A DNA stretch of 64,000 nt. It comes from Spirochaetia bacterium (GTDB lineage Bacteria > Spirochaetota > Spirochaetia > SZUA-6 > Bin103). A program made the translations under genes and the position numbers. Under the pieces are notes generated by a model. The model did no database searches. It was given only the letters and a program-made list of their open reading frames with translations, and was not told the DNA's origin. This document shows positions 1,046-11,808 of this stretch, one piece after another. The first letter of the stretch is position 1, and each line of letters begins with the position of its first letter. Location of the stretch: positions 1,184,001 to 1,248,000 of the forward strand of contig CBDBOV010000004.1 of assembly GCA_965208575.1 (NCBI GenBank), given 5' to 3'.

Positions 1046-3013
1046 TCAGCGCTCCTCTGCCCGGCCGCCCGCGGCGAGTCCCGACACCTCCGCGAGGCGG
1101 CGCACGGAGCGGGCGGCCGCCACCTCGCTGGTCGCCAGGCACACCAGGTCGGGTATGCGGCGCTCGGTACTGCGCTTCACCAGCGGCCGCACTTCCTCGG
1201 AAGCCAACACCGCCGGCCGGCAGTCCTGCCGCGCACTCTGCCCGAGGGTGGCGGCCAACTCCTCGACCCAGCGGCCGAACTCCGCCGCGGCGCCCGGCCG
1301 GAGGTCCTGCCCCGCCTGCGCGGCCAGCAGCTCCCGCTCCAGCTCCGGCGCCAGCGTGACCACGTGCAACACGCCCTGCGCGTCGCTGTGCTGCGCGCTG
1401 ATCTGGCGGCCGAGCGAGCGCCGCACCCGGCGCACCAGGTAGTCCACGTCGCGCTGCCGGCCGGCCTCGTCCGCGAGCGTCTCCAGTATGGTTACCAGGT
1501 CGCGGATCGATACCCGTTCACGCAACAGCCCCTGCAATACCGCGCGGATCTCGCCCACCGACAGCGCCGCGGTGGCCTCTTCCACCACCGTCGGACAGCT
1601 CTCGCGCAATTCGTCGATCATCGCCCGCACCTGGTCGCGGCCGAGCAGTTCCGCCGCGTGACGCATGAGGACGGCGCGGAACTGCCCCACCAGGGTATCC
1701 ACCGTGTCGGAGCAGCCGGCACCGGGACGGCAGCGTCCGCCGCCGGCTTCGACACCGCGAATCTTGAACCGGTACGCGGTGGGCGGAAGCTGCAGGTTGT
1801 CGGTAACGTGCAGCGCCGGCACCTGCAGCCCCCAGTCGCGCGCCGCCCGGTCGCGTACGCCGCGGGCGCCGCGCAGCAGCTCGGCGCCCGCATTCCCGTC
1901 GGTCGCCGCCAGCAGACCGTACCCCAGTTCCAGCGCCAACGCCGGCGGCAGCGCAGGCGCGGCCCCGCCGGCAGGGTTCGGCGCCGCCGTTGCCCCCGCG
2001 TCGGACGTCGGCGGCGCTGCTTCGGTACCAGGATTGCGCCGGCCGACCGCGCGGCCCAGCCCCGCCACCGCGCCGGCCAGCGGCAGCAACAACCAGGGCG
2101 GGAACCCGGGCAGCAGGCCGAGCAGGGCGAGAAAGCCGGCGGTGACGTAGAATGGACGGTCGTAGCGGGCGAGCTGCAGCGCGGCGTCGATCCCGAACGG
2201 CTGGTCCGAGGCGGCGCGCGTAACGATGATGCCGGTGGCGGTGGAGACGAGCAGCGCGGGAAGCTGGGTTACCAGCCCGTCGCCGATGGTCAGTGCGACG
2301 TAGTGATGCGCCGCGGATGCCAGGTCCTCGCCGTGCACGCTGACGCCGATGATGAAGCCGCCGGCGAGATTGACCGCGGTGATGAACAATGCCACCCGCA
2401 CGTTGCCGGCCACGAACTTGGAAGCACCGTCCATGGCACCGTAGAAGTCCGCCTGGCGCTGCAACTCCTGCTGCCGGAGCCGCGCCTGCGCCTCGGTGAG
2501 CCGCCCGGAGTGGTATTCCGCGTCGATCGCCATCTGCCGGCCGGGCAGGGCGTCGAGCGTGAAGCGCGCCGCCACCTCCGCCACCCGGGTCGATCCGCGC
2601 GTAATCACCACCACCTGCACGGCGATGATGATGATGAAGATGATCAGGCCGATCACCACCCCCGCGGTGCCGGAAGATCCGACCACGAAACTGCCGAACG
2701 CGCGCACGATGCGGCCGTCGAAGGCGGCCCCCTGCGACAGGATCAGCCGCGTCGAGGAGACATTGAGCGCCAGCCCGAACACGGTGGCCAACAGCAGCAA
2801 GGTAGGGAAGCTGCTGAACTCGGCGCTGTTGCGCACACTCAGCACGACCAGGATCACCAGCAGGCTGATGCCTATGTTGAGCGCCATGCCGAGGTCGAGC
2901 AGCACGGCCGGCAGCGGAATCAGCAGCATCAGCACCGCGACGCACACGAACACGGCGACCAGCGCGTCGCCGCGCTGCAGCCAGGCGCCGGAGGGATTGC
3001 CGGCCCTGCTCAT
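1046..3013 (-). CDS. flhA: Export gate protein FlhA with an internal deletion in the cytoplasmic domain
   Basis: FSSFPTLLLLATVFGLALNVSSTRLIL, RVAEVAARFTLDALPGRQMAID, FYGAMDGASKFV, LTIGDGLVTQLPALL, ERVSIRDL; start ATG 3013 overlaps flhB stop. Confidence 0.95.
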   Translation of the reverse strand: MSRAGNPSGAWLQRGDALVAVFVCVAVLMLLIPLPAVLLDLGMALNIGISLLVILVVLSVRNSAEFSSFPTLLLLATVFGLALNVSSTRLILSQGAAFDGRIVRAFGSFVVGSSGTAGVVIGLIIFIIIIAVQVVVITRGSTRVAEVAARFTLDALPGRQMAIDAEYHSGRLTEAQARLRQQELQRQADFYGAMDGASKFVAGNVRVALFITAVNLAGGFIIGVSVHGEDLASAAHHYVALTIGDGLVTQLPALLVSTATGIIVTRAASDQPFGIDAALQLARYDRPFYVTAGFLALLGLLPGFPPWLLLPLAGAVAGLGRAVGRRNPGTEAAPPTSDAGATAAPNPAGGAAPALPPALALELGYGLLAATDGNAGAELLRGARGVRDRAARDWGLQVPALHVTDNLQLPPTAYRFKIRGVEAGGGRCRPGAGCSDTVDTLVGQFRAVLMRHAAELLGRDQVRAMIDELRESCPTVVEEATAALSVGEIRAVLQGLLRERVSIRDLVTILETLADEAGRQRDVDYLVRRVRRSLGRQISAQHSDAQGVLHVVTLAPELERELLAAQAGQDLRPGAAAEFGRWVEELAATLGQSARQDCRPAVLASEEVRPLVKRSTERRIPDLVCLATSEVAAARSVRRLAEVSGLAAGGRAEER

Positions 3014-4140
3014 TGCGGCCACCGCACGCCTCCGAAACGCGCGCCGACGCCGGGCTCGCGGCGGTCGCGGCTCGCCGCGCCGTGCGCCGCCAGCATCGCG
3101 GCCACCGCCGGCTCGTACGACCGCGGGATGGGGTCGCCGAGCGCGACGCGGCGAAACAGGGCGCCGGCCAGCGCCGCGCGTTCGATCACGGCCACGCCGC
3201 TCGACTCGGCCGCCTGCCGCATCCGCGGTGCGCTGTCGGCAGCCGCCTTGGCGACCACCACCGGCGCGGTCATGGTGTCGGGGTCCCACCGCAAGGCCAC
3301 CACGGTACGCGCCGCGTCGGCGCACACCACGTCCGCGGCCGCGACCTGCTCGGCGGCCGTGCGCGCGAGCAGTGCGCGCGTGCGGGCGCGCAACCGATCG
3401 CGCACCATCGGGTCGCCCTCCTGCAGGCGCCGTTCCTCGCGCTCCCGTGCCACCGAACGGTGCGCCCGCCGGCGGGCGCGGAAATTGCGCAACAGGTAGT
3501 CGGCCGCCGCCAGCAGCAACAGGGCACCCGCCGCCTGCACGGCCAGGCGCAGCGCCGCGCCGTACGCCGCCTCGGCCATGGCTGCGCCGGCCGCGATCGC
3601 GCGCAGCGCGGCGCCGATGTTGAGCACCGCGATCACCGCCACCCCGCCCACCTTGAGCAGTTCCCGGCCGAGGCCGATCGCGGTGTCTGCCGACCACAGC
3701 CGGCGGCCGACGCGTCCCCAACTCGGGGTGATGCGGTGCCAGCGCGGCGTCACGCTTCGCAACCTGATCGGCAAACCTTGCTGGACGAGATGTCCGGCCA
3801 CGGCGCCCGCGATCGCTGCCGCCAGCAGCGGCGCCGCCAGCCGGCCCGCATGGCCGAGCGCCGCCGGCAGCAGGCCGGCCAGCGCGGCGGCGTCGCCCGC
3901 GGCCGCCACGCGACCGAAGCACAGGCGCAGCAATTCGCCGCCGGCGGCGGCGATGGCGGGGCCGGTCAGCGCCGCCGCGCCAATCCCGGCCAGCAGGATC
4001 ACCGCCGCGGTCACCTCCGGCGAGCGCACCGGCTCGGCGGAGTCGCGGGACGCACCGGCGCGCGCAGCGGACGCGCGCAGCCGATCGTCGGCGCCGGCCC
4101 GCCCGCCGCCGACGAGAGCGGACCGGAACGCGCCGCTCAC
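3010..4140 (-). CDS. flhB: FlhB-like export gate protein, divergent, no NPTH motif
   Basis: SPEV near N-terminus, ELLKV, EGDP, ADVV...VALRWD...MTAPVVVAK, LAGALFRRVALGDPIP; lies between fliR and flhA. Confidence 0.9.
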   Translation of the reverse strand: MSGAFRSALVGGGRAGADDRLRASAARAGASRDSAEPVRSPEVTAAVILLAGIGAAALTGPAIAAAGGELLRLCFGRVAAAGDAAALAGLLPAALGHAGRLAAPLLAAAIAGAVAGHLVQQGLPIRLRSVTPRWHRITPSWGRVGRRLWSADTAIGLGRELLKVGGVAVIAVLNIGAALRAIAAGAAMAEAAYGAALRLAVQAAGALLLLAAADYLLRNFRARRRAHRSVAREREERRLQEGDPMVRDRLRARTRALLARTAAEQVAAADVVCADAARTVVALRWDPDTMTAPVVVAKAAADSAPRMRQAAESSGVAVIERAALAGALFRRVALGDPIPRSYEPAVAAMLAAHGAASRDRREPGVGARFGGVRWPQ

Positions 4141-4970
4141 GGCACCGCTCCCGCGCCCGCCGGCGGCGTGGCCGTCAGCCCGTCCAGCATCCGGCGCAGC
4201 GTGGCAAAGCCGTCGTCGAGCGCCGCCGCGGCGGCGCTCAGCAGCAATGGCAGCGTGACCAGGAGGATCACCAGGCCGGCGCCGAGCGACAACGGCAGCC
4301 CCAGCATGAGCAGGTTCATGTGCGGCGCGACGCGCGCGAGCAGGGCAAGCGCGAGTGACACCAGCAGCAGTGCCGCGAATATCGGCAGCGCGATCGCCAT
4401 GGCGGTGCCGAACAGGCGCGCAAGGCTGCCCGCCACGGTGTGCAGCAGCAACCCGGCGCCGCGGCCCGTGCCGGCCGCGAAGCTCACCACCAGGTCGGCG
4501 GCGCGCAGGGCGTGAAAGGAACCCGCCACGCCGTCGAGCATCAGCCGGTGCAGTCCGCCCACCGACAGGAACGCCATCACGGCGAGCACGTGGAACAACT
4601 GGCCCAAAAGCGGAGAACGGCCCGCGGTGAACGGATCGAGCAGCTCGACCACGCCGAACCCGACGGGCAGCGAGATGAACGCGCCGGCGGTCTGCAGGGC
4701 GGTGAACCCCAGGAGCACCAGGAAGCCGAGCAGCACACCCACGAGCGCCTCGCCGAGCAGCAGCAACGCGAACTGTACCCCGGACGCCGGTACCGGGTAG
4801 CCGCCGGCGATCACCCCGGGCAGCGCTACCACGGCGATGAACAGCGCCAGCCCCAACCGCCCCGGTTGCGGAATGGCCGCCGACGAGAACAGCGGCGCCA
4901 CCTGCATCATCGCCACCACGCGCGCCAACACCAGCAGCCCGATCCCCAGGTCATCGGCAAGCAGCCGCAT
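4137..4970 (-). CDS. fliR: Export gate protein FliR
   Basis: LARVVAMMQVAPLFSS, GEALVGVLLGF, DPF, LARVAPHMNLLMLGLPL; lies between fliQ and flhB. Confidence 0.93.
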   Translation of the reverse strand: MRLLADDLGIGLLVLARVVAMMQVAPLFSSAAIPQPGRLGLALFIAVVALPGVIAGGYPVPASGVQFALLLLGEALVGVLLGFLVLLGFTALQTAGAFISLPVGFGVVELLDPFTAGRSPLLGQLFHVLAVMAFLSVGGLHRLMLDGVAGSFHALRAADLVVSFAAGTGRGAGLLLHTVAGSLARLFGTAMAIALPIFAALLLVSLALALLARVAPHMNLLMLGLPLSLGAGLVILLVTLPLLLSAAAAALDDGFATLRRMLDGLTATPPAGAGAVP

Positions 4971-5245
4971 CACGGCCTCGCCGCCATGGCCGGGATGCTC
5001 TCGAACAACCGGGTAGTGAAGTCGATCATCGACGCCCCCAGCCACGGGCCCAACAGCAGGGCGACCCCGATGACCGCAAAGATCTTCGGCACGAAGGACA
5101 GCGTCTGCTCCTGGATCGAGGTGGCAGCCTGCACGATCGACACCACGAGCCCCACCAGCACGCTCGCCACCATCAGCGGCGCCGCCAGCACGAGGAGCTG
5201 CAGCACCGCCTCGCGCGCCAGGGTCACGACGGTACCGAGCGTCAT
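4970..5245 (-). CDS. fliQ: Export gate protein FliQ
   Basis: VGLVVSIVQAATSIQEQTLSFVPKI signature. Confidence 0.96.
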   Translation of the reverse strand: MTLGTVVTLAREAVLQLLVLAAPLMVASVLVGLVVSIVQAATSIQEQTLSFVPKIFAVIGVALLLGPWLGASMIDFTTRLFESIPAMAARP

Positions 5246-5256
5246 CGCCGCCGCCA

Positions 5257-6102
5257 TCAGCGGAAACTCTCGATCAGTTGCATGACCAGCAGATCCCAGC
5301 CATCGACCAGTACGAACAGCACCAGCTTGAACGGCAGCGAAATGAGCACCGGGGGAAGTACGATGATCCCCATCGAGATCAGCGTGGTGGCCACCACCAT
5401 GTCGATGATCACGAACGGAATGAATATGAGCACGCCTATTTTGAATGCCACGGTGAGCTCATGCAGAATGAACGCCGGGATCAGGATGTAAGTGGGCACG
5501 TCGGCGCGCGTGTTCGGCTTGGGCAGATCGCGCATGCTCATGAACAGGCGGATGTTGTCGGCGTCGTTGCCGAGCTGGCGAAACATGAATTCGCGTACCG
5601 GGGCCTGGGCGCGTTGCAACAGCTCCTGCCCGTGCAGCTCGCCGCGCGAGAACGGCTGCAGGGCGTCGCGGTTGATCGCCTCGAAGGTCGGCCACATGAT
5701 GAACGCGGTCAGAAACAGGGCTACGCCCATCAACACCTGGTTGGGCGGCATGTCGGTGAGCGAAAGCGCGCGCTTCACGAACTGCAGCACGATGGCAAGG
5801 CGCAGGAACGAGGTAGTCAGGATCACGATCGACGGCGCCAGCGACAGCACCGCGAGCAGCAGCAGCAACTGCAGCGACAGCGCCAGCTCCTGATTGGTGT
5901 ACGCGTCGCGCAGGCTGAGGTCCAGGAACGGCACGCTGCTGACGGCCGGCGCCGCGGCGGCTGCGATGCCCGCGGCCGCGGCAGCCGCCGCGTCGGGCGC
6001 GGGCGCCGGCGTCTGCGCCGCCACCGGGGCGGCGATGAGCAACGCCGCGCACAAGGCCGCGCCGGCGGCAGCACGGCGGCGCAGGATGCTAGGTAGCCGC
6101 AC
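5257..6102 (-). CDS. fliP: Export gate protein FliP
   Basis: LSLAPSIVILTTSFLR, PPNQVL, IPAFILHELTVAFKIG, ISLPFKLVLFVLVDGW; probable GTG start at 6102 after GGAGGAAGAGG; signal-peptide-like N-terminus. Confidence 0.96.
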   Translation of the reverse strand: MRLPSILRRRAAAGAALCAALLIAAPVAAQTPAPAPDAAAAAAAGIAAAAAPAVSSVPFLDLSLRDAYTNQELALSLQLLLLLAVLSLAPSIVILTTSFLRLAIVLQFVKRALSLTDMPPNQVLMGVALFLTAFIMWPTFEAINRDALQPFSRGELHGQELLQRAQAPVREFMFRQLGNDADNIRLFMSMRDLPKPNTRADVPTYILIPAFILHELTVAFKIGVLIFIPFVIIDMVVATTLISMGIIVLPPVLISLPFKLVLFVLVDGWDLLVMQLIESFR

Positions 6103-7036
6103 GGACCTCTTCCTCCACCGCCGGGGTGCGGCCCAGGCGGCGCGCGCGATCCCGTTGGCGGGGCGCCCGATCACCCAGGCGGCGCGCTCGATCCCGTTGG
6201 AGGGGCGCCCGATCCCGTTGGAGGGGCGCCCGATCCCGTTGGAGGGGCGCCCGATCCCGTTGGAGGGGCGCCCGATCCCGTTGGAGGGGCGCCCGATCCC
6301 GTTGGAGGGGTGCCCGATCCCGCTGGAGGGGCGCCCGATCACCCAGGCGGCGCGCCCGCTCCCGCTGCCGGCGCAGGAACGCGGTGTGGCCGGAGTCCGC
6401 GCTGCGCGCATCGGAGGGCGTGCCGATGCCGGCCTCGGCGAGCAGGTCGGCAAACCGGCTGCGCGCGGAAGCGCCCTGCCCGGCGGGGTGCGCCGCGAGC
6501 CGATCGAGGCGCTCGGGATCGGTGATCTCGGCCACCAGGTTTACCGCCTGGTCGCCGGCTCCCACCAGGTAGTAGCCGCCGGCCGCACGCACCAGGTGCA
6601 GGCTGCGGTTGCCGCCGAGCGAACGCGAACCGAGCACGGCGATCAGCTCGCTGTTGCCGAGCCGGCCCGCGGCGCCGCGCCGGAAGAGCCGGAACAGCAG
6701 GTAGATCGCGCCGAGCACCGCGGCAAGCACCACCACCATGCGCACGAAGTCGCCGGTCGAGACCACGCCGCCGGCCGCGGCGCCGGAGGTGCGGCCGGCC
6801 TCGGGCAGCGGCGTCGCGTCGACCGGCGGCGCGCCGGCAACCGACGCCTGTGGCTGCGGTTGCGGCTGCTGCGCGGACAACGGACACACCGCGACCAGCA
6901 GCGCGCCCGCGATCAGCAGCGCCGGAGCACCGATGGCAGAGCGCCGCGCACGCTTGGTCGAAGCGCGGGCGGCTGTCGCGTTGTACAGGTCTGTTCCCCT
7001 CCCAGGAACGCAGCCTTGCGTCCTTTCCTTCGCCAT
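6089..7036 (-). CDS. fliO: FliO (spirochaete FliZ) with a C-terminal heptad repeat expansion; start uncertain
   Basis: TM segment DFVRMVVVLAAVLGAIYLLFRLFRR then VLGSRSLGGNRSLHLVRAAGGYYLVGAGDQAVNLVAEI; directly upstream of fliP. Confidence 0.85.
   Translation of the reverse strand: MAKERTQGCVPGRGTDLYNATAARASTKRARRSAIGAPALLIAGALLVAVCPLSAQQPQPQPQASVAGAPPVDATPLPEAGRTSGAAAGGVVSTGDFVRMVVVLAAVLGAIYLLFRLFRRGAAGRLGNSELIAVLGSRSLGGNRSLHLVRAAGGYYLVGAGDQAVNLVAEITDPERLDRLAAHPAGQGASARSRFADLLAEAGIGTPSDARSADSGHTAFLRRQRERARRLGDRAPLQRDRAPLQRDRAPLQRDRAPLQRDRAPLQRDRAPLQRDRAPLQRDRARRLGDRAPRQRDRARRLGRTPAVEEEVRAAT
6147..6356. repeat. Compound 21-bp tandem repeat, 10 units (7 consecutive CGATCCCGTTGGAGGGGCGCC-type units at 6189-6335)
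   Basis: Read directly; unit A encodes DRAPLQR and unit B (CGATCACCCAGGCGGCGCGCT) encodes DRARRLG on the minus strand. Confidence 0.97.
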
Positions 7037-7044
7037 CGCCGGCG

Positions 7045-7953
7045 CTATCGGTCTCTCCCCCCGGAGTCAAGAATCTCCGTGACCCGGATGCCGTAACTGT
7101 CTTCCAATGCCACGACCCGCCCGCGCGCGACCGGCTCGCGGTTCATCTCGATCGCGACCGACTGGCCGGCGAATCGACTCATGCCGATTACCATGCCCTC
7201 GTCGAGGGCGGGCGCGCCGCCGCTGCGCAGCCCGCCGGCGCCCAGTTCAACGGTCACCATGGCATCGGCGCGAGCGGCGCGCGACGGTCGCGGCGGCGCC
7301 ACTTCGCGGGCCAGCAAGCGGTGGCCGATCGCCGCCAGACTTGCCTCCGCCACCGCCAGGTACAGTTGGCCCTCCTGTCCGCCGGCGGCCGCCGCGAAGG
7401 TGGCGCACACCAGCCGGGTGTCCGGCGCCGGCAGTTCGGTGGTGTCGGCCTGCCGCTCGAGGTACTCGAGGCGCGGTACGACGCCGCACACCGGCGCCCA
7501 CGCGCGCTGCAGGTCGGGCAGCAGCGCCGCGATGCCGCGCCGCAGCACCATGCCCTCGATCTCGCTCAAGCCGCGCTCCGGCACCATGGGTACGCCGCGC
7601 CCGCCCAGCAGCCGGTCGATCAGCAGGAATGCAAGCACCCGGTCGACGGCAAACAGCGCCGCCCCCGGCAGCGGGTCGAGCGCCACGCCCGCCAGCGCCG
7701 CCGGCGCCCACCGGGCTCGCAGTTCACTGCATGACCGGCGCTCCGCCGCGGCAAGCCGAACCCGGCACGGCGTGCGCACGAGCGTGCTGAGCGACTCGGA
7801 GGCGAAGCGCGCGAATCGGCGATGTACCGCGCTCACGATGGCGACCTGCTCGCCGGCCAGCGGCCCCGCGCCGGACGGCAAACCGCCGGGGGGCATACTG
7901 CCGGACGGCATACTGCCGGACGACCAGCGGTCATGCGGCACGCCCTCACCCAT
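7045..7953 (-). CDS. fliM: C-ring protein: FliM middle domain fused to a FliN-type SpoA domain; start uncertain
   Basis: VHRRFAR...LSTLVR, DPLPG, IDRLLGGRG, RGLSEIE, AWAPV (FliM); C-terminus VTVELG...AGQSVAIEMNREPVARGRVVALEDSYGIRVTEI (FliN-like). Confidence 0.85.
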   Translation of the reverse strand: MGEGVPHDRWSSGSMPSGSMPPGGLPSGAGPLAGEQVAIVSAVHRRFARFASESLSTLVRTPCRVRLAAAERRSCSELRARWAPAALAGVALDPLPGAALFAVDRVLAFLLIDRLLGGRGVPMVPERGLSEIEGMVLRRGIAALLPDLQRAWAPVCGVVPRLEYLERQADTTELPAPDTRLVCATFAAAAGGQEGQLYLAVAEASLAAIGHRLLAREVAPPRPSRAARADAMVTVELGAGGLRSGGAPALDEGMVIGMSRFAGQSVAIEMNREPVARGRVVALEDSYGIRVTEILDSGGRDR

Positions 7954-8080
7954 CGGCGCCCCCGGCGCCCGGCCGGCAAGGCGCGACGAATGCGCACACC
8001 GGTGGTACGCGAGCGGGGAGCAACGCAGCCAGCCGGGAGGGATCGCCGCGTTCATGCAGCCGGAGTTGCGCCATCGGCTG

Positions 8081-9718
8081 CTAGTCCTCGACCAGCCACC
8101 GGCGCAGCGCGCGCGCCGCGTCTTGCGGTCGCCGGCGGGCCAGGTGCTCGGCGCTGCGGCGCATCTGCTCCTGGTCCGCCAGGCCACCCGGTCTCCCGGT
8201 CCCGAACACCCGCGTCGCGCTGCTCAAGCGCGCCGTGCCGCCGGCGGCGCGCGCCGCCCGGCGGCGGCGCTGCCGCCGGCGCACCACCACGACCAGGGCG
8301 AGCAGCAGCAGCGCGGCGGCCGCCGCGGCGGCCGCCGGCAACATGCTCAGCAGCCATGCCTCCCGGCGCAGCAGCACGTCTTCCTGCGCGAACTGACTGC
8401 TGCGGTCGAACTGCAGATGCTCCACCGTGACCGAGTCGCCACGCTGCCGGTCCCAGCCGATGGCGTCCTGAACCAGCAGCGTCGCCTTGCGCAACTCGTC
8501 GCCGGGAACCGGGGTGTACGTGCGCCGCACGCTGCCGTCCTGGTTCAGGGCGACGCCGCCGTCGGGCCGGAACTCGGTGCGCCACACGCCGTCGAGGGCC
8601 ACGCTCACCGTGATGCGGTTGATCGCCCAGGGGCTCTCCTCGCGCACCGTGTTGCGCCGGTTCACCACCTCGCTGCGGCTCGTCGAGCGGCGCTCGTAGT
8701 GCTCGCCGGCAGCGCCGTCGCCGCTGCTCCTGGTCTCCGTCTCCTCGTCCTCGGCGACCGTGATCGAGGGCACCCGCAGCGCTTCGTCGGCGTCGGTGAG
8801 CGGATCGTCCTCGCGCAAGGCGATCGGGAAATGCTCCTCCGTGGTGGTCGACTGCGAAGACAGGTCGAGGTCGATGTCGAGGCGGACGATCTGCACCCGG
8901 TCGGCGGAGAAGATATTGCCGAGGGCGGCGACGATTTCCCGCGTGTAGCGCTGCTCCAAGCCGTACTTGGTATCCAGTTGGCGCTCCACCAGGGTCATCC
9001 GGCTGCGTCCCGAAACGCCGCCCGGATCGTTCACCTGGACGCCGCGAGGATCGAGGATCACGATGTGCTCGGCGCTCAGGCCGGCCACCGCAAACTGTAC
9101 GAGCCGCTGGATGCCGTGCACCCGATGGTGGTCGTCGAGAATCCCGGAGCCCTGGCGGGGCGTTATCACGATGGAAGCGGTGGTAGGGAGTTGATCCTCC
9201 GCGAACAGTTCGCGTTCCGGCACTACCAGGGTGACGTGGGCGGCGGCGACGTCGTCGAGCGCCTCGAGGTGCTGTTCGAGGCTGCGCGTGAGGGCGCGCT
9301 GAAGGTTGACGCTGCGTTCGAAGTCGGTGACCGAGAATCGCCCGAGGTCGAATATCGAGAACGGGTCGGTTTGCGAGGGTACCAGGTCTTCGCGAATCAG
9401 GATGCCGCGCAACCGGCGCGCCGAGTCCTGGTCGGACACGAAGATGCGGTCACCGGCGCGGATTTCGTACTCCACGCCTTCCTGATCGAGCCGGCCGGCG
9501 ATGCGCAGCAGTTGCCCGGCGTCCTCGACGGGGGCATTGATCAGTGGCACCATCCGCACACCGGCGTTCAATGGCCCGCCCTCGCGTGATGCCCCGATCA
9601 ACCCAGCGGCGACCACCGCGACGGCGAGCGCGCCGCCGAGCGACCAACGCTGCGCCCCGGTCAATCTGCCCCAAAAGCCAAACGCCTGTTGCCGCATACG
9701 CGGCAGTACGTCGAGCAT
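8081..9718 (-). CDS. fliF: MS-ring protein FliF
   Basis: DPFSIFD...TDFERSVNLQRAL, HLEALDDV, FAEDQLPTTASIVITP, GIQRLVQFAVAGL, RITVSVALDG, AIGWDRQRGDSVTVEHLQFDR, C-terminal RRWLVED; RBS GGAGGGG before ATG 9718. Confidence 0.95.
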   Translation of the reverse strand: MLDVLPRMRQQAFGFWGRLTGAQRWSLGGALAVAVVAAGLIGASREGGPLNAGVRMVPLINAPVEDAGQLLRIAGRLDQEGVEYEIRAGDRIFVSDQDSARRLRGILIREDLVPSQTDPFSIFDLGRFSVTDFERSVNLQRALTRSLEQHLEALDDVAAAHVTLVVPERELFAEDQLPTTASIVITPRQGSGILDDHHRVHGIQRLVQFAVAGLSAEHIVILDPRGVQVNDPGGVSGRSRMTLVERQLDTKYGLEQRYTREIVAALGNIFSADRVQIVRLDIDLDLSSQSTTTEEHFPIALREDDPLTDADEALRVPSITVAEDEETETRSSGDGAAGEHYERRSTSRSEVVNRRNTVREESPWAINRITVSVALDGVWRTEFRPDGGVALNQDGSVRRTYTPVPGDELRKATLLVQDAIGWDRQRGDSVTVEHLQFDRSSQFAQEDVLLRREAWLLSMLPAAAAAAAALLLLALVVVVRRRQRRRRAARAAGGTARLSSATRVFGTGRPGGLADQEQMRRSAEHLARRRPQDAARALRRWLVED

Positions 9719-9795
9719 GTTCCCCTCCCACGGCACGGATCGACTTGCCGCCGCCGCAGGGTAGACGGCCGCGGACAAGCCCTTCCGGTACCATA

Positions 9796-9824
9796 GTTAT
9801 GCGTGAGCGGCGCGCTATTGTCAA
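9796..9824 (-). promoter_or_regulatory. Sigma70-like promoter upstream of fliF
   Basis: Minus strand TTGACA (9819-9824), 17 bp, CATAAC (9796-9801); -35 is perfect, -10 is weak. Confidence 0.55.
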
Positions 9825-9859: not shown

Positions 9860-11284
9860 CTAAAGGATGAACCGCGTCAGGTCGCGATCTTCTATTATCT
9901 TGACCAACCGTTCGTCCACGTAGCCGGTCGTAATGGTAACGGTCTGGCCCTTCAGATCGGGCGCGTTGAAGGACAGATCCTCGAGCAGATGCTCCATGAT
10001 GGTGTGCAGGCGGCGCGCACCGATGTTCTCGGTGCTGCGGTTCACTTCCGCGGCCAGTTCCGACAACCGGTCGACCGCGTCATCGGTGAATACCAGGGTC
10101 ACGTCCTCGGTGGCGAGCAGCGCCTCGTACTGGGTAATCAACGCGTTGCGCGGCTGTGTGAGAATGCGTTTGAAGTCGTCGCGACCGAGATCGTCGAGCT
10201 CGACACGAATCGGAAAGCGGCCCTGCAGTTCGGGGATCAGGTCGGATGGTTTGCTCATGTGAAACGCGCCGGCGGCAATGAACAGGACGTGCGCGGTGTC
10301 GACCACTCCCCACTTGGTGGTTACCGTACTTCCTTCGACGATCGGCAGTATGTCACGCTGTACCCCTTCACGGGAAACGTCGGCGCCGCCGCGGGTGTCC
10401 TTGGCCGCCACCTTGTCGATTTCGTCGAGGAAGATTATTCCCATCTGCTCGACGCGTTCGATCGCCAGCTCCGACACACGCTCCTTGTCGACCAGCCGGT
10501 CGATCTCCTCGGCCATCAGGATCGCGCGCGCGCGGCGGATCGGCACCTTCTTCTTTTTCTTGCGGCCACCAAACAAATTGCCAAGACTGCCGAGATTGAT
10601 GTCCATCTCCTCGAAGCTCTGACCGGAGAAGATTTCGATTGCCGGTCCGCTGCTGTCGGCGACGCTCACCTCGACCAGCTTGTCCTCCAGCTCGCCCGCC
10701 CGAAGACGCTCGCGAAACCTGTTTACCGTGCCGTTTTCCGGCGCCGCGGGAGACGCGGTGGGCGGCGGCGGCGGCGGCGCAAACCCGGCCGGCGTTGCGG
10801 CCGGCGTTGCGGCCGGTGCTGCGGCCGTCTGCGGCTTCCTGGGCTGGCCCGGCGACAGACCGGGCAGCAGCAACTCGATGAGCTGCTGTTCGACGCGATT
10901 CTCGGCCTCTTCCTGAATGCCTTCCTGCAACTCGGTCTTGACCATCGACACCGCCACCGAGGCGAGATCGCGCACCATCGACTCGACGTCGCGGCCGACA
11001 TACCCGACCTCGGTGTACTTGGTGGCCTCCACCTTGACGAACGGCGCTCGGCACAGCTTCGCCAGGCGGCGCGCAATCTCGGTTTTGCCGACACCCGTGG
11101 GACCGATCAGGATGATGTTCTTCGGCGTAACCTCATCGCGCAACTCGTCCGGCAACTTGCGCCGGCGCAGGCGATTGCGGAGCGCAATCGCAACCGCTTT
11201 CTTGGCTTGTTGCTGGCCCACGATGTAGCGGTCGAGCTCGCTCACGATCTCGGTCGGGCTGAGCTTGTCCAGGTCGATGCTCAT
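9860..11284 (-). CDS. hslU: ATP-dependent protease ATPase subunit HslU
   Basis: [73 protein letters not shown]. Confidence 0.98.
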
Positions 11285-11808
11285 GACAGCTCCTCGACGG
11301 TGATTTCTCGGTTGGTGTACACGCAAATGTCGGCCGCGATCTGCAACGAACGGACCGCGATGTCGCGTGGGCCGTGGTCGGAGCTGTCCAGGAAGGCGCG
11401 CGCGGCGGCCAGGGCGTAGTTACCCCCGGAACCGATGGCGATGGCGCCGTGATCGGGCTCCAGCACATCGCCGTTGCCGGAGATGAGCAGGGTCTTGCCG
11501 GCATCGGCCGCCAGCAGCAGCGCCTCCAGGCGACGCAGCAGGCGGTCCGATCGCCACTCCCGCGCCAGCTCCACCGACGCCCGCGTCAGGTCGCCGCCAA
11601 ATTCCTTCACCTTGCCTTCGAACCGGTCGAACAGCGTGAACGCATCCGCCGTGCCACCCGCGAACCCGACCAGGATAGCACCGTCGGCGATCGCGCGCAC
11701 CTTGCGCGCGCCGCCCTTGACGATGGTCGCGTCCATGGTCACCTGACCGTCGCCGGCCATCGCCACCCGCGTGCCGCGGCGCACGGCGACGATCGTCGTA
11801 CCGTGCAT
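11281..11808 (-). CDS. hslV: ATP-dependent protease peptidase subunit HslV
   Basis: HGTTIVAV (N-terminal Thr), [31 protein letters not shown]. Confidence 0.97.

Follow-up and report, generated by a model that had tools for sequence, protein, structure and literature searches.

A predicted natural FliM–FliN chimera in a stripped-down flagellar gene set of Spirochaetia

We analysed a 64,000-nucleotide stretch of DNA (the window) from the genome of a Spirochaetia bacterium (assembly GCA_965208575.1, contig CBDBOV010000004.1, positions 1,184,001 to 1,248,000 of the forward strand), and in particular a flagellar gene of 302 codons plus stop on its minus strand (7045..7953). This gene is almost certainly a natural chimera, in which the middle domain of the motor switch protein FliM is joined to the SpoA domain of FliN. 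Judged from the sequences, the fusion is real and of single origin, and it lies in an unusually stripped flagellar core; this stripped context is the bigger story. The best explanation as a whole, to which we give a probability of about 0.8, is that a deletion created the chimera, that selection has kept it, and that its product would form the rim of the cytoplasmic ring (C-ring) from a single polypeptide. A first-pass annotation, made from the letters of the window, had proposed such a fusion and likened it to SctQ of injectisomes; our analysis bears out the former and does not support the latter.

Results

Domain layout of the chimera

The start codon at 7953 (MGE...) is conserved and the stop codon ends at 7045, giving a product of 302 amino acids; a longer open reading frame of 380 amino acids exists, but its extension is not conserved in an alignment of relatives. 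The protein begins with a tail of 33 residues (7855..7953, minus strand, as are all parts of the gene), which contains neither an LSQxEID/EIDAL peptide nor a YDF motif. Within this tail, a 15-nt tandem repeat of 3.6 copies (7869–7922) encodes SGSMP repeats, where the relatives have a gap. A FliM middle (CheC-like) domain follows (residues 34–217, 7303..7854), with the GGxG motif as GGRG at residues 117–120 (7594..7605). A linker of 14 amino acids (7261..7302), evolving nearly neutrally, ends at the fusion junction, and the SpoA domain (7063..7260) starts at Met232 with MVTVELG. FliM descent of the middle domain is supported by PF02154, an AlphaFold2 model, Foldseek and a rooted tree, and FliN/FliY descent of the SpoA domain by profiles, a SpoA tree and a PDB search.

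In Pfam, the chimera matched PF02154 (FliM) with 85.1 bits (cut-off 27) and PF01052 (FliMN_C) with 33.2 bits. The NCBIfam equivalog model of fliM (TIGR01397) scored 80.4 bits against a cut-off of 219.6 and aligned at model positions 47–229 of 320 only, and the C-terminus fitted the fliN model TIGR02480 with 44 bits, below its cut-off of 84.05. The PDB sequence search assigned residues 33–215 to FliM middle domains and residues 231–299 to FliN chains, and the match to full-length Salmonella FliM (8umd_C) was confined to its middle domain. In the AlphaFold2 model, built with 27 homologues, the middle domain had a predicted local distance difference test score (pLDDT) of about 90, and Foldseek superposed it on FliM middle-domain crystal structures with template modelling scores of 0.88–0.92 and root-mean-square deviations of 1.4–1.9 Å. 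The segment DRLLGGRG lies at residues 112–120, and D[RL][LM]LGGxG was found in all 27 aligned homologues. The GGxG motif of FliM contacts the EHPQ motif of FliG in known motors (PMC6946799, PMC4832279). A complex prediction with two SpoA copies (residues 255–336 of P0001) scored 0.25 and 0.28, with the mark at 0.42, and counts neither for nor against such a pair.

The first-pass annotation had noted that the CheY-binding peptide is missing upstream and that no separate fliN or fliY precedes fliO, and both observations held. The pattern [LIVM]SQxE[IVL]D was absent from the six frames of 6900–8400 and of the whole window, and strict LSQxEIDxLL was absent from the 6.5-Mb genome. The peptide occurred in none of nine loci of the genus and twice, on FliM and on FliY, in each of two flagellated outgroup loci. 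Only 8 nt separate the stop codon of the chimera from the start of fliO, and the whole genome (95% complete) contains exactly one PF01052 and one PF02154 match, both in the chimera.

Fused and unfused relatives

The chimera protein was searched against 41 related genomes; G000 below denotes the genome of the window. Four congeners matched from end to end, with identities of 85% (G006), 75% (G001), 73% (G007) and 53% (G008), which brings the fused form to five genomes of the genus. In G003, G010, G009 and G005, the match fell into two pieces, the middle domain in one frame and the SpoA part about 400 nt further on in its own frame of 150–290 amino acids. The gene order at these unfused loci is fliF, fliM with its own SpoA domain (V.ISAEIG...AVQV), a fliN of 135–150 amino acids (...DIGLLLDVDLRxTVELG...GVRVTEI) and fliO. 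Aligned with this pair, the fused protein has lost FliM's own SpoA domain and the N-terminal segment of FliN (VxPVxL...DIGLLLDVDL), and PF01052 matches number two per unfused and one per fused genome. The “FliN” of the genus is a FliY without its CheC-like part and N-terminal peptide.

G004 (76% complete) gave no match to the chimera protein, and the match in G002 lies in another gene order (fliN, then fliM). G002, of the same genus (510 contigs, 81% complete), also gave two rod, three flagellin and three FliG matches and none to FHIPEP; either its bin is mixed or it belongs to a flagellated member.

In a protein database, we found 25 fused-type clusters at 90% identity, of 281–338 amino acids and 53–100% identical to the query, all with the same junction, and two unfused FliM proteins besides. 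The fused clusters derive from ENA, JGI, NCBI and Logan. SpoA matches occurred in 253 of 301 Spirochaetia genomes that were at least 90% complete, and only eight of these had a single one: four sampled members of the fused clade, the fragmented G036 and G144, and the small G055 and G126 of another genus. That genus (g37 of family f23, genomes of 1.5–1.8 Mb) has weak SpoA matches (E 1e-6 to 1e-17), and its members differ in SpoA count, with none, one, two or three.

Origin of the fusion

The SpoA and middle domains were placed in separate trees. The SpoA tree comprised 17 domains: five fused, four FliN, four FliM C-terminal domains (FliM_C), and two plus two from relatives that are flagellated and belong to the same order. 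In this tree, FliM_C (6) was separated from FliN/FliY together with the fused domains (11) with support of 100/100. Constraining the fused domains to group with the FliM_C of the genus cost 39 log-likelihood units and was rejected by the approximately unbiased (AU) test (p=0.0007), while grouping them with the FliN of the genus was not rejected (p=0.35). A further AU value of p=0.24, for the fused domains plus all FliM_C against FliN/Y, belongs to a constraint that is ill-posed on an unrooted tree and is superseded. Identity of the fused domains was 35–58% to FliN/Y versus 15–26% to FliM_C.

The middle-domain tree, rooted with three flagellated relatives, was (G005,((G003,G010,G009),(G008,(G001,G007,(G000,G006))))). 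In it, the fused genes make up a single clade (100/99) within a grade of unfused genes, which points to one derived event. At the four unfused loci, the homologous codons of the first beta-strand of the two SpoA domains lie 326, 353, 356 and 377 nt apart. Each of these spacings is 2 mod 3, which means that a deletion in register brings the two frames into phase. In G005, a 29-nt direct repeat, 79% identical, sits exactly at the two beta-strand sites, which suggests a repeat-mediated deletion.

The following course of events would fit these results. The ancestor of the genus, whose members are uncultured, high-GC Spirochaetia, would already have had an operon cut to hslVU-fliF-fliM-fliN-fliOPQR-flhBA-flhF, with fliG elsewhere. 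In one sub-lineage, a single deletion of about 326–377 nt, running from the first beta-strand (xTVELG) of one SpoA domain to its homologue in the other, would have taken the C-terminal SpoA domain of FliM and the N-terminal segment of FliN. The fliN frame would thereby have come into phase with the fliM frame, and the fusion product would have been retained under purifying selection through speciation. The earlier proposal of an in-frame deletion joining two adjacent genes, one contributing a middle domain with GGxG (IDRLLGGRG) and the other a FliN-like SpoA domain, is therefore upheld: congeners keep both genes at the locus, the SpoA domain is of FliN/FliY descent and does not group with FliM C-termini, and the genome holds no normal fliN elsewhere.

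A stripped-down flagellar system

The first 12 kb of the window hold a single row of genes on the minus strand. At its head stand hslV and hslU (9860..11808), which in spirochaetes are conserved as neighbours upstream of the flgB operon. The gene of the MS (membrane–supramembrane) ring protein, fliF (8081..9778), lies directly upstream of the chimera; flgB-flgC-fliE are missing between hslU and fliF, as are fliG to fliL between fliF and the chimera. Downstream follow fliO (6089..7036), fliP (5257 to about 6000), fliQ (4970–5257), fliR (4137–5045), flhB (3010–4140), flhA (1046 to about 3000) and flhF (1–1041), which runs off the window.

The flagellated relative G031 of the same order has the classical spirochaete operon, hslVU-flgB-flgC-fliE-fliF-fliG-fliH-fliI-fliJ-...-flgD-flgE-flbD-motA-motB-fliL-fliM-fliY-fliO/P-fliQ-fliR-flhB-flhA-flhF-flhG-...-fliA, with LSQDEID on both FliM and FliY. 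When its proteins were searched against G000 with tblastn, FliF, FliG (on another contig), the FliM middle domain, SpoA, FliQ, FliR/FlhB, FlhA, FlhF and FliA were found. The same search did not find FlgB, FlgC, FliE, FliH, FliJ, FlgD, FlgE, FlbD, MotA, MotB, FliL, FlhG or the gene between flhF and fliA, and FliI matched ATP-synthase-like genes only; stator genes and FlhG were sought in G000 alone.

Profile searches with hidden Markov models (HMMs) extended this picture to the genus. Rod/hook proteins (PF00460) and flagellin (PF00669) were each absent from all ten genomes other than the fragmented outlier G002, which makes one of eleven for both. FliI (TIGR01026) was above its cut-off in none of the eleven genomes and CheW was found in none, whereas FliG was present in all eleven. 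Methyl-accepting chemotaxis proteins (MCPs) were absent from G000. FlgM (PF04316) was not matched in the genome, but the family is small and divergent and the test accordingly weak. On this evidence the remaining set comprises fliF, fliG, fliM/N, fliOPQR, flhBA, flhF and fliA only.

Two of these genes lie outside the window. The sigma-28 homologue FliA (contig C4:1182804-1183559) lies just left of the window, beside flhF, and is 75% identical to that of G031. The stand-alone fliG (contig C5:1154669-1155631; locus L003:1465-2511) encodes an orthologue of the in-operon FliG (49% identity, versus 25–30% to the paralogue). Within the genus, FliG retains EHPQ at 7/7 loci, and FliF retains its C-terminal peptide at 6/6. 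The acidic pair after MSKR of FliG, presumably the torque-helix position, is ED in the outgroups; among the five members of the genus with the pattern it is DA in four and EE in G008.

The row dprA-xerC-hslVU-fliF-fliM(N)-fliO...flhF is common to fused and unfused members, although the hslV, flhA and xerC rows of the congener gene-order tblastn show conserved DNA only. The reduced row in both kinds of member places the stripping before the fusion. FliPQR, FlhA, FlhB and FliF all have Pfam matches. The autocleavage site NPTH of FlhB (3307–3336, minus strand), intact in G031, reads ADAAR here and is replaced in all nine members of the genus (ADAAR, ADPAR, AHGER, ADGRR, GGAR); its loss would leave the gate without a substrate-specificity switch. 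In flhA (1115–2935), the FHIPEP match is split (model positions 2–405 and 450–654) in most members of the genus, with about 45 model positions around the linker missing, and in G009 and G010 only the first part matched at E<=1e-10.

The sister genus g2 lacks FliM (0/13) and, in the four members searched, SpoA. Full-length FHIPEP matches above 700 bits occur in three of its 13 genomes (G011, G012, G015) and may belong to a different type III system.

The composition of this DNA calls for care in reading frames. The G+C content is 66–76% in the window and about 70% in the genome, and long wrong-frame open reading frames occur on both strands, such as one of 711 amino acids at 1364–3499 (plus strand). 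Such pieces still gave strong tblastn matches, and open frames and tblastn alone are therefore unsafe here. A 21-nt tandem repeat (9.5 copies, 90% matches; 6142–6340) in the 3' part of fliO encodes DRAPLQR repeats, and a long overlapping “fliP” frame reads the same DNA as GIGRPSN repeats. Three sequencing runs contained at least half of the sampled words of 6000–9800; one is labelled sponge metagenome, two carry a coded organism label, and no RNA run was among the matches listed. The best-matching run may be the source itself, and this habitat hint is a lead only. The bacteria of the genus have large genomes and are possibly associated with sponges or the sea.

Selection or decay

The ratio of nonsynonymous to synonymous substitution rates (dN/dS) was estimated by the Nei–Gojobori method within the fused clade. 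For the chimera it was 0.31–0.59 over the whole alignment with tails and 0.31–0.50 over the tblastn-aligned core; by part, it was 0.24–0.43 in the middle domain, 0.24–0.57 in the SpoA domain and near 1 in the linker. Frame-shifted controls, the same DNA read one or two bases off, gave 0.74–2.05. Other genes of the row, compared against G006, G001 and G007, served as benchmarks: hslV 0.03–0.09, hslU 0.06–0.11, fliP 0.13–0.15, fliQ 0.16–0.24, fliR 0.21–0.25, fliF 0.21–0.28, flhA 0.22–0.30, flhF 0.22–0.29, flhB 0.35–0.54 and fliO 0.39–0.48. These values indicate that the chimera is under purifying selection, though few genes of the row are less constrained, and the gene is probably still functional.

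Several observations weigh against a chimera born by deletion and kept by selection. Its dN/dS is among the highest of the operon, level with flhB and fliO. The fused SpoA domains score 34–55 bits on PF01052 versus 86–89 bits for the free FliN of congeners, and their first half is degenerate (GAGGLRSGGAPAL replacing STTRTIREVL), with pLDDT below 50 in the AlphaFold2 model. At 70% G+C, frames stay open by chance, and intactness alone is therefore weak evidence. As to the deletion itself, the direct repeat is present in only one of the four unfused genomes, G005, and the junction is not placeable to the nucleotide.

The strongest alternative is that the gene is a functionless remnant heading to loss, the deletion having been tolerated as the C-ring no longer matters. 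The relatively high dN/dS, the lowered SpoA score and the degenerate first half of the SpoA domain would agree with this, as would the disappearance of all motility, ATPase and chemotaxis partners and the lack of FliM and SpoA matches in the sister genus. However, the dN/dS of the chimera is far under that of the frame-shifted controls and similar to that of flhB and fliO; the frame and GGxG have been retained to a synonymous divergence of about 1 (G008) and in 25/25 clusters; and the adjoining gate genes, fliP above all, are strongly constrained. We therefore regard decay as unlikely and prefer a gene retained by selection.

A second alternative, that of the first-pass annotation, makes the chimera an SctQ-like sorting-platform protein, in which the full-length chain and a free SpoA chain started at the Met of DAMVTVELG would rebuild a multi-SpoA rim. 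Here, too, a single gene covers the FliM/FliN function, and SctQ has itself been read as a FliM–FliN fusion with both SpoA domains and an internally started free SpoA chain (PMC4832279). At the junction, 17 of the 25 fused clusters have Met and one further cluster has it a position later, and in G008 the sequence GGGAG stands 4 nt upstream of the junction Met. Against this, the junction residue is Arg in four clusters, Val in two, Leu in one and Thr in one, and no Shine-Dalgarno-like sequence precedes the junction Met in four of five genomes. Moreover, protein and genome contain one SpoA domain, not two, and the ATPase complex has gone: besides FliI/SctN in the eleven genomes, FliH and FliJ are absent from G000 by tblastn. 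Neither the convergence nor the internal start is borne out, and this alternative is very improbable.

It could further be argued that the gene is an ordinary FliM whose own SpoA domain merely looks like that of FliN, fliN having been lost separately. Its length and its architecture of a middle domain plus one SpoA domain do match a normal FliM, a point that the first-pass annotation had missed, and the sources name it [quoted passage not shown] or “FliM”. However, FliM_C origin of the SpoA domain is rejected by the tree, the AU test and the identities, the fliM equivalog match ends at position 229 of 320 and the fliN model covers the C-terminus, and congeners have both genes at this locus. 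We consider this explanation already refuted, unless far denser sampling moves the fused SpoA domain into FliM_C. An artefact of assembly or binning that merged two genes is conceivable for a metagenome-type assembly (six contigs, 5.75% contamination), but the same junction recurs in independent assemblies, five genomes including the single-contig chromosomes G001 and G007, and in the 25 protein clusters, which refutes it.

Discussion

Possible working of the single-polypeptide rim

The rim of the C-ring is normally built from FliM_C:FliN heterodimers and FliN homodimers. According to the literature, its stoichiometry is FliM1:FliN3, the SpoA domains of FliM and of FliN/Y form separate groups (PMC6946799), and SpoA domains are obligate intertwined dimers that build the rim (PMC6946799, PMC4832279). 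Inferred from such established C-ring contacts, the middle domain of the chimera would dock under FliG through GGxG/EHPQ, and its single FliN-type SpoA domain would pair with that of a second chimera. The lower rim of FliM1:FliN3 would thus be replaced by a 1:1, single-polypeptide rim without free FliN. Such a ring would be mounted on an MS ring and an export gate lacking ATPase, rod, hook, filament, stators and chemotaxis input.

The N-terminal peptide of FliM binds phosphorylated CheY and, in other species, also FlhG (PMC12826062). In G000 the loss of this peptide is accompanied by that of CheW, MCPs and FlhG. The description of the scaffold as “chemotaxis-blind” is therefore true but trivial, since no CheW or MCP is present and the peptide is already missing from FliM and FliN in the unfused congeners. 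The use of FliN as a dock for FliH is likewise moot because FliH and FliI are gone. The gene is unusual in the descent of its SpoA domain and in the reduced system in which it is embedded.

The flagella of spirochaetes are periplasmic, and a rod-less gate would accordingly deliver into the periplasm. Together with the working export system of Lysobacter described below, this makes a role in export or as a scaffold plausible. The chimera could thus form the C-ring of a periplasm-directed export core that runs on the proton motive force (PMF), or of a polar scaffold, an assignment to which we give somewhat less than even odds. More speculative still is a genus-wide machine of four parts, MS ring, FliG, one-polypeptide FliM/N rim and PMF-driven gate, with an FlhB that cannot be cleaved and without ATPase, rod, hook, filament or stators, repurposed as an exporter of proteins into the periplasm or as a polar scaffold positioned by FlhF. 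[quoted passage not shown]

Implications

Our analysis describes a natural case, conserved across species, in which the SpoA domain of FliM appears to be replaced by that of FliN and no free FliN is left. This raises two questions: can SpoA homodimers by themselves make up a ring, and what purpose does a C-ring serve that has lost torque, switching and ATPase docking? The chimera, an FlhB without its cleavage site and the missing ATPase would jointly define a minimal flagellum-derived core. As this core is kept under selection in genomes of 4.6–8 Mb, not in tiny endosymbionts, it lends itself to testing models of T3SS simplification and repurposing. It also carries a warning for annotation, as the label “FliM” or “FliM/FliN family” could cause such a genome to be scored as motile.

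The papers listed in our search on FliM–FliN fusions concern SctQ and a laboratory mutant, and the literature searched on spirochaete flagellar loss, retained export genes and Spirochaetia metagenome-assembled genomes does not describe the chimera or the reduced set, supplements aside. In a preprint of 2026 on the phylum, no clade other than the Sphaerochaeta group is treated as non-spiral.

Comparison with known systems

The chimera resembles a canonical FliM (PF02154 plus PF01052; TIGR01397) in its CheC-like middle domain with GGxG, its one C-terminal SpoA domain, its similar length and its position upstream of fliO/fliP; it differs in lacking the EIDAL/LSQxEID peptide and in having a SpoA domain from FliN/FliY. 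That domain falls in the clade of FliN and spirochaete FliY (TVELG...AGE.V.I.VN...ARGEVV...GVRVTEI), but it is not free-standing, has lost the N-terminal segment and is degenerate in the region of its first helix.

SctQ (Spa33/YscQ/SsaQ) shares with the chimera the use of one gene for the roles of FliM and FliN. In SctQ, however, two SpoA domains pair as an internal pseudodimer, a free SpoA2 chain is made besides from an internal start, and an ATPase complex is docked. The chimera has a single SpoA domain, it lacks a conserved internal start, and there is no ATPase for it to dock. As far as the sequences tell, the resemblance is one of gene count only.

A parallel to the fusion event is a laboratory mutant of Salmonella, an in-frame fusion of the adjacent fliM and fliN genes. 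Its product acts as joined FliM and FliN and needs extra free FliN (Kihara et al. 1996, as cited in PMC4832279), whereas the natural chimera does without both FliM_C and free FliN. For the reduced set as a whole, one comparison is with Buchnera, a non-flagellated bacterium keeping flagellar T3SS genes. Non-flagellated Lysobacter enzymogenes OH11 keeps a flagellar export core with FliI and exports heterologous flagellin (PMC7277350). The Spirochaetia described here likewise retain the export core without a filament, but in them the ATPase, rods, hook and stators are missing, FlhB is without NPTH, and FliM and FliN are fused.

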